Source: a virus
Lineage: Duplodnaviria > Heunggongvirae > Uroviricota > Caudoviricetes
IMG/VR virus record: IMGVR_UViG_2724679538_000007
Span: 1 to 38,703 of that record
Length of the DNA: 38,703 nucleotides
Strand: one strand, 5' to 3'
Part shown: positions 3,368 to 34,991 of the stretch, one piece after another
Layout: each line of letters starts with the position of its first letter
How positions within the stretch are numbered: the stretch's first letter is position 1
Made by a program: the position numbers and the translations under genes
The notes under the pieces: model-generated
What the model was told of the DNA's origin: nothing
The model's input: only the letters and a program-made list of their open reading frames with translations
The model's database searches: none

Positions 3368-3972
3368 TAAGCAGCCGCTCCTTCTAATTCGTCTCGTCTG
3401 ATGTTGTAAACGTCCTGCGCTTTGTGCTGCTCAGGTGTGCCTTCGAGCATCTTCCACGCTTTGGCGAACGCCTGTTTAAGCTCTTCTAAGGTGTTTTTCT
3501 GCATTGCTGCGTCAGTGAATGCTTTTAGAACCTGTTCAGGTGTAGGTGATAGTTTTGATTGCTTTGCTGCTGCGTTCTGCTGATGTTTATGCTCGTCGGT
3601 ATCTGCATCTTTCGCATCATCAATGCCGAACAAACCATTGAGGCAATACTTGCGTGCATAAGAGCTTGTAGCTCCCGTAACTTGTGCAGAATCCATTCCT
3701 TTCTTGCTTTCTTCCTCTCGTGCAAGAGCAGTTGCCGTATGACTGTTTTCGCCATCGGTAATAGTTGCCGTGGCTTTCACGTAATACCGATCACCAATCA
3801 ACACAACTTCATCGCTGATTGATAAAAACAGGCCATTCAGTAACGGCTTAACGCCTTCAAGAATGTCTTCGCAGCTTCTGTATTTATATTTACCGAATGA
3901 GTTGTACTGATTCTTTGGCGCGTTCAGATTCTCCTGAATAGCTGCCAGTCTTGCGTAAAATTCTTTGCTCAT
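3367..3972 (-). CDS. erf: Erf family single-strand annealing recombinase (P22 Erf-like, about 201 aa)
   Basis: MSKEFYARLAAIQENLNAPKNQYNSFGKYKYRSCEDILEGVKPLL ... YYVKATATITDGENSH ... YARKYCLNGLFGIDD matches P22 Erf as I recall it; genuine ATG at 3972 (track ORF starts at an upstream TTG). Confidence 0.9.
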   Translation of the reverse strand: MSKEFYARLAAIQENLNAPKNQYNSFGKYKYRSCEDILEGVKPLLNGLFLSISDEVVLIGDRYYVKATATITDGENSHTATALAREEESKKGMDSAQVTGATSSYARKYCLNGLFGIDDAKDADTDEHKHQQNAAAKQSKLSPTPEQVLKAFTDAAMQKNTLEELKQAFAKAWKMLEGTPEQHKAQDVYNIRRDELEGAAA

Positions 3973-4073
3973 ATGATTGTTCTCAGAATGGACACGGCCC
4001 AAGGAAATAACGCTGATTTAATACTTCGACTCGGGACAAGTTAAGGCATACCCGCATTCCTTCGCGGTCACCA

Positions 4074-4232
4074 TTATGGCGATACCAGAGAGCTTTCTGC
4101 GTGTACATGCGTCTCTGTAACTTGCTCTCCTTCACTGTGGTTGCAAGTGACATGAATATCTCCTTCGTTACCGATTAATTCTTTCATCTGACGAATGAAT
4201 TCTTCGTCTGACCAGTTATCCGTAAAACTCAT
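4074..4232 (-). CDS. Hypothetical small protein (52 aa) in the kil/arf position
   Basis: ATG at 4232 with AAGG RBS, overlapping the stop of the cIII-like ORF; between cIII-like and erf where P22 carries kil/arf; no recognisable similarity. Confidence 0.4.
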   Translation of the reverse strand: MSFTDNWSDEEFIRQMKELIGNEGDIHVTCNHSEGEQVTETHVHAESSLVSP

Positions 4233-4399
4233 GGACGGCCTTGTTGTTTCAAAATATCCCAAAGCTTTTCGAGCAAACTTTTCATTCTTGGTTGTTTAAA
4301 GTCTGCTCCGGTTAAAATATTTTTTCGTGAATGCTGTACCGATAAAATCGGGTTGAAAGGGCGAACCGATGCCGCCCCTGCAATAGCGAACTGTTGCAT
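4229..4399 (-). CDS. Possible CIII-like small regulator (56 aa)
   Basis: MQQFAIAGA... resembles the lambda CIII N-terminus (MQYAIAGW...); AAGGAG RBS 6 nt upstream; right size and position for cIII; similarity is weak. Confidence 0.4.
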   Translation of the reverse strand: MQQFAIAGAASVRPFNPILSVQHSRKNILTGADFKQPRMKSLLEKLWDILKQQGRP

Positions 4400-4585
4400 A
4401 GGATGCTCCTTCTGTTTGATTGCATAACGAAAACGCCTCGAGTGAAGCGTTATTGGTATGCATATAAAAAGGCCCCCACATCGGAGGGCAAAGAAGATTT
4501 CCAATAATCAGAACAAGTCGGCTCCTGTTTAGTTACGAGCGACATTGCTCACATAGCAGACTCGTAAATCTGCTATAGGCGCTTA

Positions 4586-4741
4586 TTCGCATCGCATGAC
4601 AACATCAAATTTTTCGAGATTACTTTGTCGCAACAATCCTTCTTCTACTCGGTCAGCTTTTCTATAATTATCAAATTCGAAATGTTTAATTACTTCTTTT
4701 GTTTCTCGCTCTATAACTTCAACGATGTATCTCTTATTCAT
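4586..4741 (-). CDS. Hypothetical small protein (51 aa)
   Basis: ATG overlaps the TAA stop of the upstream gene (TAATG coupling); not in the ORF track because it is under 60 aa. Confidence 0.3.
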
Positions 4742-5010
4742 TACTCATCACCTAGGGCTTTTTTGATAGCTTCGCGAGCCTTATTAACAGCTCCATACCA
4801 TTCTGGATATGTTGTCGTTGTTCTATTTTCGGCTTGCTTAAGTAATAACTGAAGTGCTTCAAGTAAATCCGGTGCAGCCATAGCCAACCTTCCATTTGCT
4901 ACGGCCTCTTCTGTTTCTTTACCGGATAGGGCCATTCCCGGGTGTGAAAATAAAATTAAGCCTGCAAAATTGGCTTCTCGCCAATTTTTCCTAGTACCTT
5001 TAAATTCCAT
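4741..5010 (-). CDS. Hypothetical protein (89 aa)
   Basis: ATG at 5010 with GAGG RBS (track ORF begins at an upstream TTG); PL operon orientation. Confidence 0.5.
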   Translation of the reverse strand: MEFKGTRKNWREANFAGLILFSHPGMALSGKETEEAVANGRLAMAAPDLLEALQLLLKQAENRTTTTYPEWYGAVNKAREAIKKALGDE

Positions 5011-5049
5011 GTTAGCCTCTGTTGTTTGTGCCAAAAATAAAGGCCACCA

Positions 5050-5301
5050 TCAGGCAGCCTTGTTGTAAATGTTGCAGGTATCAAGTAAGTAATTAGATGG
5101 AGCGCCATAAATTATGAATTCATCGTTTGTCGGGTCCATCTCCATCTCTTGGCCTATTGCCATTCTTGCGTCAGTGTCATCAGAGGCGAAGCATAAAACA
5201 GCCCACGCACCCATTGTTTTAAAAAGAACTGCAATTGGCTGTGGTTTTACTGAATTTGCGTTAGCGCGAAAATCACAAATCGCACTTTCATGAAACTCCA
5301 T
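5050..5301 (-). CDS. Hypothetical protein (83 aa)
   Basis: ATG with GAGGT RBS; PL operon orientation. Confidence 0.55.
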   Translation of the reverse strand: MEFHESAICDFRANANSVKPQPIAVLFKTMGAWAVLCFASDDTDARMAIGQEMEMDPTNDEFIIYGAPSNYLLDTCNIYNKAA

Positions 5302-5355
5302 ATATCACCTCAAATAAGTGGTTTGCTGCGAAAGTAAATACGCTTAAGTTACCTG

Positions 5356-5493
5356 TTATTTATCCCACCAAGTTCCGTATCTATCTATCCAGTTACACCA
5401 ATCATCGACACTCCATTTTGTTGTGTCGCATTTTGGCAACTGGCATGAATATCTACCTTCTTTGTAAAGTCGGCGTTTGACTTTCTTGAGCAT
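5356..5493 (-). CDS. Hypothetical small Cys/Trp-rich protein (45 aa)
   Basis: ATG with GAGGTG RBS 4 nt upstream; MLKKVKRRLYKEGRYSCQLPKCDTTKWSVDDWCNWIDRYGTWWDK; under 60 aa so absent from the track. Confidence 0.35.
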   Translation of the reverse strand: MLKKVKRRLYKEGRYSCQLPKCDTTKWSVDDWCNWIDRYGTWWDK

Positions 5494-5679
5494 GGCTCAC
5501 CTCAATCGTAATAAGCTGGAATTGATTTTCCGCGTTGCTTCTGGCGGCCTGAGCAAGTCACACCCATTTCACTGCGTGGCTTGCGGTAGTAAAGATTGTG
5601 CCTGTCTTTTAACCACATCAGGCTCGGTGGTTCTCGTGTACCCCTACAGCGAGGAAAATAGTAAAATCCTCTCACCCCC

Positions 5680-6042
5680 TTATTTTGTCAGGGGGATATC
5701 TCCTTCAGTTCTGACCATTCGCCTTAATACTTTCCTTAAGTCGATGTAAAGTTGAAGGTCTCCATTTGCTGCGGCATCAGCCATTTTTTGCCTGACAAGC
5801 AGTAATGTTTCATACGGCTCAATAAGAATATCGTCATGAGTAATTAGGTGAAGCGTTGCCGCATCAACTATTCCTAGAGCTGCGCCAAGTATCAAAAATT
5901 CCCTGCTATTTTTGTCGCATGAGGAGATAAGCGTATTTAGCGCATACCTAATATTCTTTATAGCTGTTGTTAATGCTGCAATTTCTTCTATGGCGTCCTC
6001 TTCAATGAGCTTTTTAAGCTCATATTTTTCTTCCTGACCCAT
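5680..6042 (-). CDS. Hypothetical protein (120 aa), first gene downstream of N
   Basis: ATG at 6042 with GAGGT RBS, 2 nt after the N stop; the track ORF (148 aa) would overlap N. Confidence 0.55.
   Translation of the reverse strand: MGQEEKYELKKLIEEDAIEEIAALTTAIKNIRYALNTLISSCDKNSREFLILGAALGIVDAATLHLITHDDILIEPYETLLLVRQKMADAAANGDLQLYIDLRKVLRRMVRTEGDIPLTK
5684..5712 (-). terminator. Hairpin plus U-rich stretch after the first gene downstream of N (tL1-like)
   Basis: Minus strand reads CCCCCT-GACAAAATA-AGGGGG followed by TGAGAGGATTTTACTATTTT. Confidence 0.4.
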
Positions 6043-6044
6043 AA

Positions 6045-6317
6045 TTACCTCGCCGTCAATTGTTTTGATTTCCGGTAGCCTGCCGCGTAAACGGCTACGT
6101 TTGGCAGGCAAATACTTCCACTGCATTCATCTGCCTTCTTGTAGCGAAGGCTTCCGAGTGATGCTGCTTTATCTGCTCTGACGCAACCAGAGAGCTTTAG
6201 CGCAATTTTTCGCGCCAGTCGCTGCTCTTGCATTGCCTGTTCACGTTGAGCCTGTCTGCGTGCTCTGCGGCGATTTCTGGCGTTATCGTCAGCCAGATAT
6301 GTAATGACTACTGTCAT
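6045..6317 (-). CDS. N-type transcription antiterminator (P22 gp24-like, 90 aa)
   Basis: N-terminal arginine-rich motif NARNRRRARRQAQREQ; C-terminus LPNVAVYAAGYRKSKQLTAR resembles P22 gp24; GGAGG RBS; nutL just upstream. Confidence 0.85.
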   Translation of the reverse strand: MTVVITYLADDNARNRRRARRQAQREQAMQEQRLARKIALKLSGCVRADKAASLGSLRYKKADECSGSICLPNVAVYAAGYRKSKQLTAR

Positions 6318-6423
6318 GTTGACCTCCGATGATTGACTTTGGCGGTGACGCGCCGGGTGCTTATCTTCCGGTTGCCGTCGTGCAGCTGCACTTCACGTCA
6401 CCCCAAAGCCAATTACTCTTTGG

Positions 6424-6466
6424 TTCCCGCATTTCGGCGGGACAATCCCATCAATGTTAAAGAGCC
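6424..6466 (-). promoter_or_regulatory. nutL (boxA GGCTCTTTAA plus boxB hairpin UCCCGC-CGAAAU-GCGGGA)
   Basis: Same boxB stem-loop sequence recurs on the plus strand downstream of cro (nutR); boxA matches the CGCTCTTTA consensus. Confidence 0.7.
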
Positions 6467-6511
6467 TGCCAATCTTTTCCGTTTGGCTTCCAGCTTCCTG
6501 CTGATGGCTAA

Positions 6512-6598
6512 AGAATACTGTAGGTATTTTATTGTGTAAATACCCAAGGTATTTATTTTTGATGAAATAATGATAAGCAAATGAATACAAAGGATATT
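6512..6598 (-). promoter_or_regulatory. PL promoter with OL operator repeats
   Basis: Three 15-bp near-palindromes, AATACTGTAGGTATT (6514-6528), AATACCCAAGGTATT (6539-6553), AATACAAAGGATATT (6584-6598); minus-strand -35 TTTACA and -10 TATTCT separated by 17 nt and overlapped by the first two sites. Confidence 0.55.
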
Positions 6599-6684
6599 TA
6601 TTTTTTCGGTGTCTGCTTGTTCAGTGCTTTTTATGCGGGATATGTGAAGTGGATCCCGATAGCTATTGCTGCCGGGATTATAGG

Positions 6685-7053
6685 TTAGTCAGCGAAGGTT
6701 AAGACGAGAATTACCTTAATGATGTCTGCTACAACAGACACGGCCATAGATAAACCAAAGACGATCCAAGCCACAGTGATGTCTTCACTACCATCGTATA
6801 GAGTTCCGTAATCACTGGTGTAAGGCGTAAATGTCGCGCCTTGATACAATAGGTATAAGCTTGATCCATAGAGGATAAATGCAGATATCCCTTGTATTGC
6901 TATGATCACCAGAATCATGAAACGAGCTGATCTATGCGCCCAAGCCTGGCTTATTTTTTCTGATAGAGATTTCGCAATAAAAGCATGCGCTAAGCCGTAA
7001 ATTGTCGAGATTGCCAACATCCCAAAAAAGCTTGCTATAGCGGTTCCAACCAT
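6685..7053 (-). CDS. Small polytopic membrane protein (122 aa) co-transcribed with cI; candidate exclusion/abortive-infection factor
   Basis: ATG 18 nt after the cI stop with AAGGGGG RBS; three hydrophobic helices predicted by eye; occupies the rexA/rexB position. Confidence 0.6.
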   Translation of the reverse strand: MVGTAIASFFGMLAISTIYGLAHAFIAKSLSEKISQAWAHRSARFMILVIIAIQGISAFILYGSSLYLLYQGATFTPYTSDYGTLYDGSEDITVAWIVFGLSMAVSVVADIIKVILVLTFAD

Positions 7054-7071
7054 AAGCGCCCCCTTGCGTGA

Positions 7072-7788
7072 TCAAACCAGTCTGAGTTTTGTCTCAATTG
7101 CAACGCCTATAATCTTGCAGTTTCCATTGATTGGCACGAGAGGCCATGCAGGATTAAGTCCCTTGAGGTATTTATTTCCGCCGTCGATTATCAGCTTCTT
7201 GAATGTTGCTTCGTTAGAGTCAGAAAGTTTTGCTATGACCAAGCTGCCGTTGATCGCCTCCCTTCCGGTATCGAAAAGAACGAATGTTCCCTCTGGAATG
7301 CTTAACCCAACCGGTGCCGTCATTGAATCACCTTCCACTTTAAGCCAGAACGCATTACCTTGAATATGCGCGTCAGACTCAAGCCAAACATCTATGTCTT
7401 TAATGGTGTATGGTTCGCATGCTTCACACCACGAGCCAGCCTGGATACTGCTTAACACCGGATACCTCTTTCCTGCTCTGTATTCCCCTGCATACCTTAC
7501 GTTGGCATCGCTCTTAAGGCTTTCTGCCTGTTCTGCAACCTTGGCAGCAATTGACTGGCTAAAATCAGCAATTGAGACTTGCAACAATCGTGCAAAACCA
7601 GATGCAACCTCAACGTTTAGCGCATTTCTGCCATTAAGATAATGCCCTACCGCTCCTTGGGTGATACCCAGTTCATCAGCGATTGAGTATTGGGTTATTC
7701 CCAATTCTTTCTTTTTTGACTCATACAAAGCCTTAAGCCGCTTAGCGTCTTCCAGCTGTTCTGTCGTCAGTGATTTTTTATTTTCCAT
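7072..7788 (-). CDS. cI: CI-type prophage repressor (HTH N-domain plus LexA/S24-like autocleavage C-domain, 238 aa)
   Basis: LTTEQLEDAKRLKALYESKKKELGITQ and FWLKVEGDSMTAP ... FKKLI ... LNP parallel lambda CI ([47 protein letters not shown]). Confidence 0.93.
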   Translation of the reverse strand: MENKKSLTTEQLEDAKRLKALYESKKKELGITQYSIADELGITQGAVGHYLNGRNALNVEVASGFARLLQVSIADFSQSIAAKVAEQAESLKSDANVRYAGEYRAGKRYPVLSSIQAGSWCEACEPYTIKDIDVWLESDAHIQGNAFWLKVEGDSMTAPVGLSIPEGTFVLFDTGREAINGSLVIAKLSDSNEATFKKLIIDGGNKYLKGLNPAWPLVPINGNCKIIGVAIETKLRLV

Positions 7789-33089: not shown

Positions 33090-34991
33090 ATGACAGATTC
33101 AATAAATGCCAATGTTGTAGTGAGTATGCCTTCGCAACTCTTCACTATGGCTCGTTCTTTTAAAGCCGTAGCCAATGGCAAAATTTATATCGGGAAAATT
33201 GACACTGATCCGGTAAATCCTGAAAACCGGATTCAGGTTTATGTAGAGAACGAAGACGGCTCTCACGTTCCTGTTTCTCAACCAATCATCATTAACGCTG
33301 CTGGTTATCCGGTATATAACGGACAGATTGCTAAATTCGTAACTGTGCAAGGCCATTCCATGGCTGTTTATGATGCGTATGGTGCACAGCAATTCTATTT
33401 TCCTAATGTGCTGAAGTATGACCCTGACCAGTTCAAACCTGAACTACAAGGTGCCAATGGAGCAAGCTTAATTGGTACTAATCATCGCGGCACCTTAAAG
33501 GCTGACTTAGATCGCATTGACAATAGAACGTCGGGACAGTCCATCGCAGATTTAAAGTCTAATACTGGTGATATTGTTATCGACTCCTCTGTTACGGACG
33601 CAATCACCCCAATTTCAGGCAGCGAGATATCTGGGGCGAGTAACGGGGAACATGTCACCGCTAAGGGTACTGTCGGGATTACTATAAATGATAGCAGGGT
33701 TAAGGTTGATAACTTGCTAATGCGCGGCGACGGCACTGTAGACTACACGGACACCTCACCGACATATAATGCCATTATCTATGGCTCGGACGTTGTTGTG
33801 TCCCGTTCATACGCTAAAGACACGACAATGGGGTACGACTTGGCCGCCGGTGCTTCCAACGTTAAGCTAATTGGTAATACAAGTGAAAATATGACGTCGC
33901 ACCCCGCCGTTGGTACACCACCTGTTTCAGCCGGTGGCTATGGTGTGCTTCTGGGAACTAACGAGGACGTATTAATCCTGGGCCATTCTGCTAAGGGCAC
34001 AAACCCTGCTGACCGCCACGCAGTATACCTATCAAATACGAACAACACTGACCAGAACAAAGATGTTCGGGTAATCGGCTTACGTGCGGATTACAGCGCA
34101 GGTCCATCCGCGGGGGATAAGCCGGAGCGGTCATCACCTATGATATTCGCCCGCGGCAACAACGGCGTCATTATCAGTTCTTCCCAACTCCGTGGCGGCG
34201 GAGCCGGTATAAATTTCACAGATGAGCGCGTAGGATACAGTTCAATAACCTTGAGTGATTTGCAATTACTGGATATTCGTAAGAATACCGCGGATGAGTC
34301 ATGGGGTATCGCACTCAACCACGCGTCTGCTAACGCTTCCAATGTCAACACCCAGAATATTATTAACGGCGTTAATATAGTAATGGCGCCCGGGAGCACA
34401 TCTGCCGACAGGTCGAATCAGTACCCTATACACCTTAATTCACAGCGGTATGTAAATATTGATAATGCCATCATAGCATCGTCGGGGTTGGCGTACGGAA
34501 TACGCCTGATAGCTACAAGTTACTGTAATATCAGTAATGTAGTAGGGTTTACTAACGATGGGACATCTGCCGCGGCGGCCGTGGCGTTCTTCCAGTTTCA
34601 GAACGGAAGCAGTAATATTAAATTAAGCAATATAAACGTCCAATCAAGAAATACAATGTTCGCAGGGCTGGATAATGTAACCGACTTGCAAGTGGATTGG
34701 GTGCGTAAAGTTCGCATTAACGTTGTATCTGGAGCGGCTACAGTATCAGGGGATATATGGGAACTAGTTAGCGGCGTAACCGTCACTGGGGCGAGTATAG
34801 CTGTTCAACTTAAGGGCCATGTAACACAAACCGCTGCTGATGGCGCTATCGTAAGGCCGGCTAGTGCTAATCAATTTATTGTTGCTGGCACTGACTCTAA
34901 AAGGATTACAATTTCTGTATATAACGTTAATGGCACTGGTGTTGTGCCAAACACTGGTACTTATTCGTTCGATATTGTGCTATATAAATAG
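33090..34991 (+). CDS. Tailspike protein (P22 gp9-like N-terminal head-binding domain, divergent receptor-binding domain; 633 aa)
   Basis: N-terminal about 120 aa parallel P22 tailspike (ANVVVS ... [22 protein letters not shown] ... [12 protein letters not shown] ... NVLKYDPDQ); the rest is unrelated by eye and Gly/Asn/Ser-rich, consistent with a beta-helix. Confidence 0.88.

Follow-up and report, generated by a model that had tools for sequence, protein, structure and literature searches.

The DNA analysed here (the window, all 38,703 nucleotides of IMG/VR record IMGVR_UViG_2724679538_000007, from a virus of the Caudoviricetes) has five short open reading frames between its N gene and a cIII-like gene, raising the question of whether these are genuine genes and, if so, whether they are new and what roles they may have. 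A preliminary description, made from the sequence alone, had listed five unknown small genes in this position. The five are real and all lie on the minus strand, although the last encodes 52 rather than the stated 51 residues. Both flanks were correctly named, N by its PF25694 match and the cIII-like gene by its membership of phrog_550. The genes, termed A to E, and the N gene that precedes them are as follows.

6045-6317, minus strand: N, antiterminator of the HK620/H-19B type (PF25694, E 8e-15; HK620 annotation)
5680-6042, minus strand: gene A, 120 aa, pI 5.0, HkaQ of HK620, phrog_7374
5356-5493, minus strand: gene B, 45 aa, pI 9.4, Trp-rich, DUF5484 (PF17583)
5050-5301, minus strand: gene C, 83 aa, pI 4.2, phrog_2471
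4741-5010, minus strand: gene D, 89 aa, probable member of the PF27050 Phage_P22_Y8K6 family (P22 ORF78)
4583-4741, minus strand: gene E, 52 aa, phrog_6949

The order of the region (cI, PL, N, A-B-C-D-E, tL2/PreS, cIII, kil, erf) is collinear with the annotated maps of HK620, lambda, P22 and Sf6. The gaps are 2 nt (N-A), 186 nt (A-B), 54 nt (B-C), 39 nt (C-D), -1 nt (D-E) and 183 nt (E-cIII). The start of A is an ATG 2 nt past the N stop codon, an alternative 148-aa reading from position 6126 overlapping N out of frame; D has 89 residues counted from its ATG, or 97 if an upstream TTG is used. The earlier statement that most of the genes have good ribosome-binding sites or translational coupling is borne out, in that all five have an ATG start preceded by a Shine-Dalgarno motif (GAGGTAATT-ATG for A, GAGGTGAGCC-ATG for B, GAGGTGATAT-ATG for C, AGAGGCTAAC-ATG for D and AGGTGATGAGTA-ATG for E), and the ATG of E shares 1 nt with the TAA of D in the junction TAATG. 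The exact A to E proteins are all present in a collection of 15 billion proteins, in clusters of 74-497 members from up to about 1000 contigs, and hundreds of E. coli contigs encode them unchanged; each matches one PHROG family over almost its full length (E 1e-17 to 1e-79). The GC content of the five genes is 0.32-0.42, compared with 0.467 for the whole window.

We conclude that A to E are more than chance ORFs. That B (45 aa) and E (52 aa) might be untranslated chance ORFs in spacer DNA is suggested by the skipping of B by PGAP, which leaves it unannotated in two complete genomes that contain it, and by E being known solely from near-identical copies. This proposal is, however, very improbable: B passes the DUF5484 gathering score and has protein homologs of about 50% identity, encoded by unrelated DNA, in more than 1000 T-even-type genomes (a tblastn search with B gave 1037 phage records), both B and E have strong Shine-Dalgarno motifs at the correct spacing, E is coupled to D, and the few nucleotide differences among copies of E are mostly synonymous (4:1 and 2:1).

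The term "unknown" is appropriate to the extent that a characterised function cannot be assigned to any of the five, but they are not new, all being identical to catalogued proteins. Likeness to Ral, SieB, Gam or Abc was found for none of A to E by Pfam, NCBIfam or BLASTP, as the preliminary description had anticipated for ral, sieB and gam. The sole accepted match among the Pfam, NCBIfam and PADLOC profiles is that of B to DUF5484; the PADLOC models gave no match to A to E at E 0.1, and searches of PDB sequences, run with single queries as well as with profiles, gave nothing below E 0.09. These profile and PDB searches, together with fold searches, gave no functional lead. We found no functional study in the literature on hkaQ, DUF5484, the PHROG families, gp55.4 or XkdD/Y8K6, and an Rfam search of 4000-7200 gave no credible match. 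A to E are ordinary, already-known accessory genes and do not constitute a new kind of element.

The sequences between and beyond the genes are informative with respect to their arrangement. Four segments, three linkers and an sRNA/terminator region, have counterparts in lambda.

5576-5656: linker, matching lambda 34373-34453 (immediately before the sieB start of lambda) at 97.5% identity
5297-5333: linker that supplies the ral slot with its ribosome-binding site and start codon; its lambda homolog, 34353-34381, precedes orf28
5018-5066, minus strand: linker that follows the ral slot, matching lambda 34055-34103 at 92% identity
4462-4550, minus strand: homolog of the PreS/LPR1 sRNA with terminator tL2a, 93% identical to lambda 33923-34011

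All four segments, the second of them over 5297-5326, match lambda intergenic sequence at 90-97.5% identity, whereas the genes in between are unrelated. The linker at 5576-5656, beside which sieB itself is absent, is present in 48 of 80 contigs that share the N allele of the window; in strain CFSAN064035 a "regulator" pseudogene is called there by PGAP. The linker at 5297-5333 precedes a different gene in mEp213; in that at 5018-5066, a U-run comes after a hairpin resembling a terminator (5061-5040, dG -13.9 kcal/mol). PreS has no Rfam family and was located by alignment to lambda; its location agrees with published work (bioRxiv 10.1101/2024.10.31.621285), and its core does not vary between the window, lambda and HK620. 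The PreS homolog, just upstream of which lie D and E, forms the distal boundary of the cassette block, and N the proximal one.

Variability was analysed in 75 loci, comprising the window and 74 viral contigs that share its N allele. The N-to-PreS interval has about 25 ORF families in 37 arrangements, that of the window being unique among the 75, and the presence or absence of B, C, D and E is independent of any core gene. At least 80% of 4500-6100 is covered in only one of 5426 complete E. coli genomes, while pieces of it occur in 2302. Other occupants of the N-cIII slots include Ral, SieB, Nmad5 and orf184. In one related locus (L013) Gad1 (anti-Gabija, PF25705, 230 bits), a 324-aa protein, is encoded downstream of the D pair, before cIII; Sf6 gp33 and mEp213_044 were also considered as Gad1, but have no Pfam match. 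The view that the N-cIII segment is a hypervariable accessory region is thus upheld, its occupants including Ral, SieB, Nmad5, the abortive infection (Abi) trigger orf184 and Gad1, and A to E are interchangeable cassettes in this known hypervariable stretch of lambda-like phages.

The block has the same PL operon position as N-sieB-orf28-ral-tL2a in lambda, 24-sieB-ral-ORF78-ORF67 in P22 and gp37(N)-gp36-ral-gp34 in Sf6. The ral regions of lambdoid and P22-like phages and that of the window share the same flanks, N and tL2a/PreS, and the same short linkers. By contrast, the window has neither ral nor sieB; the unrelated C occupies the ral slot, and A is located where most other loci have sieB or a 74-aa gene. 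The occurrence of sieB at the post-N position in 35 of the 75 loci, together with the remnant of sieB-upstream sequence at 5576-5656, might be taken to indicate that A to E serve the lysogen in superinfection exclusion or abortive infection, like SieB. However, they are encoded on the PL strand beyond the operators, and no convincing internal promoter was found (shuffled sequence has more promoter-like sites), so they should be silent in a lysogen. Further, they have no PADLOC match and, unlike SieB, no predicted membrane segment. We consider a role of this type to be quite improbable.

Our preferred reading, to which we assign a probability of roughly three in four, is that A to E are real accessory genes within the N-dependent PL operon of an E. 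coli phage of the P22 type, and that the phage can do without them, as is suggested by their presence and absence among related phages. By homology with lambda and HK620, PL would fire upon infection or induction, and N, produced from the first gene, would enable RNA polymerase to pass the hairpin at about 5640-5680 after A, the C-D hairpin and tL2a. Each ORF would likewise be translated from its own Shine-Dalgarno site, with E being coupled to D. The genes are separate cassettes (morons) in fixed slots, and they are swapped by homologous recombination at linkers that contain a ribosome-binding site or a terminator and are common to lambda, HK620, mEp213 and others. Within this arrangement B, as in Sf6, is inserted before the ral slot, and D with a variable overlapping partner, here E, follows, as ORF78-ORF67 follow ral in P22. 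Like Ral, SieB and orf184, which share their slots, A to E most probably target the host or rival elements, by takeover, counter-defence or the triggering of Abi, rather than serving core development.

Gene A is nearly the same as HK620 hkaQ (99% nucleotide identity over the 363-nt gene) and lies within a 734-nt block that is 98.5% identical in the two phages, with the spacing to N likewise 2 nt; in HK620, hkaQ is followed by a convergent sieB-like gene, hkaP, which is precisely absent from the window. A is a narrow ORFan: a word-indexed search gave 5 clusters, and phmmer, run exhaustively on 1.84 billion representatives, gave only variants at 64% and 52% identity. Three weak matches of A to long repetitive proteins are compositional. 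A has no Pfam match to SieB (PF14163) and is acidic and soluble-looking, whereas the SieB proteins at the post-N position of other loci do match PF14163. Of 10 genomic contexts, 9 have A directly after a 90-aa N; in the tenth, A follows a 102-aa N-family ORF with the same end position. That A is always attached to N in this manner could mean an N-linked role rather than an independent cassette.

In this regard it might be proposed that A to E tune phage development or host physiology, like Kil and cIII, with A, for example, acting together with N. The early-left neighbours cIII and kil are such modulators, A is only seen 2 nt behind an N-family gene (10 of 10 contexts, in several different immunity regions), and it is named an "antitermination N domain protein" by NCBI. 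However, neither the 120-aa nor the 148-aa reading of A has a Pfam or NCBIfam match, including to PF25694 (N_peptide), and BLASTP of A against N gave no alignment, so the NCBI name has no sequence support. Moreover, N of the same allele lacks A in 59 of the 75 loci, and B to E come and go independently of core genes. A tuning role for the five is unlikely, and that A is a translationally coupled partner of the antiterminator N is a long shot.

For B, a family assignment can be made: by sequence, it is a member of DUF5484, the family of T4 gp55.4. B is identical to Sf6 gp36, whose GenBank annotation already records likeness to T4 orf55.4, and scores 46.7 bits against PF17583 (cut-off 27) over residues 5-42 of 45, RB32 gp55.4 scoring 123.5 bits on the same model. 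The pattern DT..W....W...ID..G.W is conserved between B and its homologs from RB32, KM2, KMI11, SonariX and phiEt88, and B and gp55.4 have in common the longer pattern K..LFK.G.Y....P.GDT..W....W...ID..G.W, in proteins of 43-48 aa. B thus resembles T4 gp55.4 in passing the gathering score, in length class and in aromatic pattern. The contexts differ, B being in the PL operon of a temperate phage and T4 gp55.4 in the 55-nrdG cluster. By contrast, Sf6 gp36 precedes the ral slot, as does B.

B was earlier described as Cys/Trp-rich and possibly metal-binding. It is basic with three cysteines, but T/G/I or similar residues stand in place of Cys17, Cys22 and Cys33 in the homologs from T-even and Klebsiella phages; the four homologs from Straboviridae have no cysteine, that of phiEt88 retains only the first, and B has no histidine. 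It is the aromatic pattern that is conserved, and metal binding by B is unsupported, because the cysteines are not. Host-directed accessory genes are often common to virulent and temperate phages, and the occurrence of the B family in both virulent T-even and temperate lambdoid phages is in line with a counter-defence function.

C is located exactly in the orf28-ral slot of lambda, i.e. where ral stands in lambda, Sf6 and many prophages. The two linkers of the ral slot enclose C in 4 loci, ral in 4, an orf184-like gene in 2, Nmad5 in 1, and others; this pair of linkers also encloses mEp213_045. The C-terminal codons of C (..NKAA) derive from the linker that is common to ral. Thus C resembles Ral and orf184 in slot, linkers, linker-encoded C-terminal ..KAA and small size, but has no sequence similarity to either: BLASTP gave no match of C to lambda Ral, and E 9.7 against P22 Ral, and none of A to E has a Pfam match to Ral PF11058. 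It is possible that one or more of A to E, most plausibly the acidic C or A, is a dedicated counter-defence protein that binds and so blocks a restriction-modification system or another form of immunity, like Ral, Ocr and Gad1. The small size and acidity of C and A (pI 4.2 and 5.0, respectively) are consistent with this proposal, as are the sharing of slots with Ral and the presence of Gad1 at another position between N and cIII in one related locus. By contrast, A to E resemble neither Ral nor any known anti-defence family, and the AF2 model of C (pLDDT 56) is unusable, being too poor for a comparison with DNA mimics.

D is predicted to have a three-strand beta meander and two long helices. 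Its family is named "XkdD/Y8K6 family" by NCBI, and precomputed tables place PF27050.1 on all 81 D homologs, including a cluster representative 98% identical to D, whereas our local Pfam copy, which probably does not include the PF27050 model, gave no match for either D or P22 ORF78. D and P22 ORF78 align by BLASTP at E 4.5e-8 (residues 41-89). The family has the core AAP(D/E)LLEAL, with invariant columns L42, A45, A46, P47, L49, L50 and A52, and a C-terminal ..AI.KALG.E motif, and is mosaic in the N-terminal beta-meander segment and in the helix-2 region. In all 12 loci with D-family genes the next ORF overlaps by 1 or 4 nt, these partners coming from three unrelated families; in P22, where ORF78 follows ral, the overlapping partner ORF67 is of the DUF551 type, while in the window D follows the ral slot and is partnered by E. 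E is not an obligate partner of D, since at least four unrelated downstream ORFs serve as partners of D-family genes and 3 loci have E but no D. Matches of E to FlaG or ACP are weak and below threshold, and were rejected.

A published screen of 200 accessory genes on the ECOR strains (Silas et al., bioRxiv 10.1101/2023.04.06.535777) bears on the proposed counter-defence role. Its library includes homologs of C (UDP0060) and E (UDP0149), each differing by one residue, and a D-family member; A and B are absent from it. The C, E and D-family homologs are not in the list of genes causing lethality or host sensitisation, while Ral, Ocr and ArdA were recovered and orf184 scored too. According to that study, orf184 and ral are located in the same accessory region. 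orf184 is a trigger of the abortive-infection system gop-beta-cII. A peptide search of the supplements of a Nat Commun 2025 study gave no match. Known counter-defence genes co-occur in the region in relatives. The anti-defence role suggested in the preliminary description is weakened, though not eliminated, by the lack of a listed phenotype for C, E and the D type; a host-interaction role for these three is accordingly only putative and could be absent in common hosts. Overall, we regard counter-defence by binding as doubtful, though more probable than a tuning role.

With respect to the accessory cassettes that we consider A to E to be, the segment is a classic case of lambdoid mosaicism at conserved boundary sequences, and each of the five proteins already has entries in public databases and family libraries. 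The slot map, by showing alleles of Ral, SieB and orf184, indicates candidates for side-by-side testing. It may be, and we propose this only tentatively, that at least one of A to E acts on a host system unsampled by existing screens, as a new counter-defence protein or Abi trigger, C and the pair of D with its variable partner being the best candidates. A defined target for any of A to E, if one exists, would be an addition to the catalogue of phage counter-defence and host-takeover functions.

Judged from its sequence, the window represents a P22-like (Lederbergvirus-type) phage or prophage of E. coli whose genome is mosaic; it is best matched by HZ41, APC_JM3.2 and IME10. The minus-strand order is cI, a 122-aa ORF, the PL region, N, five ORFs (genes A-E), two terminators, the cIII homolog, kil-region ORFs, Erf and SSB.

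Early-left features of the window
7072-7788, minus, cI repressor
6685-7053, minus, 122-aa hydrophobic ORF, placed between cI and PL where HK620 has hkaS and lambda has its rex genes
6045-6317, minus, N (PF25694, E 8e-15)
5680-6042, minus, gene A, 120 aa, phrog_7374
5356-5493, minus, gene B, 45 aa, phrog_1871
5050-5301, minus, gene C, 83 aa, phrog_2471
4741-5010, minus, gene D, 89 aa, phrog_1273
4583-4741, minus, gene E, 52 aa, phrog_6949
4229-4399, minus, cIII homolog

These coordinates confirm the five ORFs after N in the preliminary description, the length of gene E being corrected from 51 to 52 aa. All start with ATG, 5-9 nt downstream of a GAGG or AGGTGA motif; only 2 nt separate the N stop from the gene A start, and the gene E ATG overlaps the gene D TAA. 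Their GC content (0.32-0.42) is below that of the window (0.467). Each has an essentially end-to-end match to one PHROG family, and all five exact sequences are present in a 15-billion-protein collection, where their clusters have 74-497 members, on up to ~1000 contigs; there was no match in NCBIfam, PADLOC or any PDB sequence. Compared with its copies in mEp213 and APC_JM3.2, gene E has 4 and 2 synonymous codon changes, respectively, and one non-synonymous change each time. Given the conservation observed, all five are considered, on sequence grounds, to be real coding genes.

Alignment of the segment to lambda reveals four short conserved pieces (linkers), with unrelated genes between them.

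Linkers (window; lambda; identity; lambda context)
5576-5656; 34373-34453; 97.5%; immediately upstream of the sieB start
5297-5326; 34353-34381; 90%; orf28 RBS and start
5018-5066; 34055-34103; 92%; final ral codons and the hairpin after them
4462-4550; 33923-34011; 93%; PreS region and tL2a

Thus gene C occupies exactly the orf28-ral slot, down to the C-terminal ..NKAA, which the linker encodes and which is also the tail of Ral (..NNKAA); the two linkers that flank gene C surround another gene, mEp213_045, in mEp213. Gene B is an insertion ahead of the ral slot, where Sf6 has gp36 ahead of ral, and an insertion with D and E separates the ral-downstream linker from tL2a, P22 having ORF78-ORF67 after ral. 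Gene A is placed between N and a remnant of sieB-upstream sequence, and the sieB-like hkaP of HK620 is precisely missing, this clean loss being marked by an 11-nt overlap at 5668-5678. The 81-nt linker 5576-5656 is retained although sieB is absent; in E. coli CFSAN064035, PGAP places a truncated 'regulator' pseudogene on the matching stretch. If this linker is still a promoter, its transcript would run antisense to N and gene A.

A terminator-like hairpin (5040-5061, minus; 9 bp, dG -13.9 kcal/mol, followed by UUUAUUUUU) lies between C and D, within the linker homologous to the lambda sequence that directly follows ral, and shares bases with the final codons of gene C. The homolog of PreS/LPR1 (4462-4550, minus, core ~4468-4550; 93% identical to lambda 33923-34011), an Hfq-dependent lambda sRNA that ends in tL2a and up-regulates host dnaN (bioRxiv 10.1101/2024.10.31.621285), has a ~65-nt core unchanged in the window, lambda and HK620, with a few substitutions in the terminator hairpin.

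The variability of this region among relatives was observed in 80 IMG/VR contigs encoding the same N allele (94-99% identity), 74 of which have a PreS homolog. In the 75 loci compared (74 contigs with both landmarks, plus the window), the N-to-PreS interval ranges from 470 to 2100 bp and holds ~25 ORF families in 37 arrangements, that of the window being unique. The post-N position is occupied by sieB (35 loci), a 74-aa phrog_5305 gene (20) or gene A (16). The counts are 16 loci for ral, 12 for the D family, nine for E, five for C and three for B. Both ral-slot linkers are present in 19 contigs, between which lie C (four), ral (four), the orf184 family (two), Nmad5 (one), two other families (one each) or no called ORF (six). 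Among 5426 complete E. coli genomes, coverage of 4500-6100 reaches 80% or more only in CFSAN064035, whose fifth gene is another one; fragments of this stretch occur in 2302 genomes. The N-to-PreS block shows the classical lambdoid pattern, in which cassettes are swapped at boundary sequences that are conserved; over tL2A, a 'boundary sequence' is even annotated in the Sf6 record.

Among the slot-mates, a role is known or has been proposed for SieB (PF14163), Nmad5 (PF18757), Ral and orf184, the last being the trigger of the gop-beta-cII abortive-infection system (bioRxiv 10.1101/2023.04.06.535777). In one related locus, an E. coli CP146665.1 prophage, the 324-aa anti-Gabija protein Gad1 (PF25705, 230 bits; L013:3133-4107) is encoded after a D-family pair and before cIII; the similarly placed 322-aa Sf6 gp33/mEp213_044 is not Gad1 by Pfam. 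Silas et al. treated the ral-containing stretch as an accessory region, and their 200-gene library, screened in ECOR strains for conditional lethality and host sensitisation, includes C with one substitution (UDP0060), a D-family member (UDP0123), E with R4K (UDP0149) and mEp213_045, an allele of the C slot (UDP0184); neither A nor B was found there (bioRxiv 10.1101/2023.04.06.535777). The paper's list of 'all AGs that produced phenotypes' lacks orf60, orf123 and orf149, so that for three of the five families this screen was run with no effect listed.

The five genes differ in distribution. Gene A is HK620 HkaQ (the genes are 99% identical in nucleotide sequence, within a 734-nt block 98.5% identical to HK620) and is a very narrow ORFan: a word-indexed search gave five clusters, and exhaustive phmmer against 1.84 billion representatives yielded, beyond these, only variants with identities of 64% and 52%. 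It lies 2 nt behind N in all 10 genomic contexts, whose immunity regions differ, and is missing beside the same N allele in 59 of the 75 loci. Its NCBI label, 'antitermination N domain protein', is without sequence support.

Gene B is identical to Sf6 gp36, whose likeness to the T4 gp55.4 family is mentioned in the Sf6 record, and passes the Pfam cut-off for that family, DUF5484 (46.7 bits, cut-off 27; RB32 gp55.4 scores 123.5 bits). Homologs of ~50% identity occur in 1037 phage records; most of these are T-even-type Straboviridae, with unrelated DNA around the gene. The family conserves K..LFK.G.Y....P.GDT..W....W...ID..G.W, but not the three cysteines of gene B, the T-even and Klebsiella phage homologs having no cysteine; the earlier proposal of metal binding is thus unsupported.

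Gene C, which is acidic (pI 4.2; AF2 model unusable, pLDDT 56), is confined to Enterobacteriaceae (16 clusters, identity ≥70%) and occurs in 56 phage records, including VT2-Sakai (H0090), the Stx1 phage, HK633 and mEp234. All 81 gene D homologs have PF27050 (Phage_P22_Y8K6; NCBI name 'XkdD/Y8K6 family'), with an invariant AAP(D/E)LLEAL core and mosaic flanks, and P22 ORF78 belongs to the family (BLASTP E 4.5e-8). In 12 of 12 loci the D-family gene shares 1 or 4 nt with the start of the next ORF, the partners coming from three unrelated families, with a fourth type and the P22 DUF551 ORF67 elsewhere. Gene E, found without D in three loci, is limited to seven phage records (mEp043, mEp213, APC_JM3.2) and a tight E. 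coli/Salmonella cluster. The PL region of mEp213 carries a tandem of two N-type antiterminator genes that differ from each other (2274-2546 and 3699-4031 of locus L002) with a D-E pair copy between them, which suggests that its early-left segment was duplicated or recombined.

Elsewhere in the region, the 122-aa ORF, without a Pfam or NCBIfam match, probably shares a transcript with the repressor in the lysogen and is thus a candidate prophage exclusion or defence gene. Two small conserved ORFs (3983-4153 and 4074-4262, both minus; PHROG label 'recombinase'), with homologs in Sf6 gp29/gp30 and HK97 gp42/42.1, overlap by 80 nt in different frames, an overlap that the Sf6 and mEp213 annotations also have.

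The proteins, families, accessory region and mosaic mechanism are already on record, and no new kind of element is involved. Genes A-E are best explained as N-dependent delayed-early accessory cassettes, most likely dispensable one by one and aimed at the host or at competitors. The ORFs with their conservation, the slots between linkers and the diversity of related loci are observed directly. The genes would be transcribed from PL, with N-dependent read-through of three hairpins, i.e. that after A, that at 5061-5040 (dG -13.9) and tL2a; their dispensability and any host-directed role are likewise predicted. It is possible, if rather unlikely, that at least one of them acts on an unsampled system, as a counter-defence factor or a trigger of Abi.
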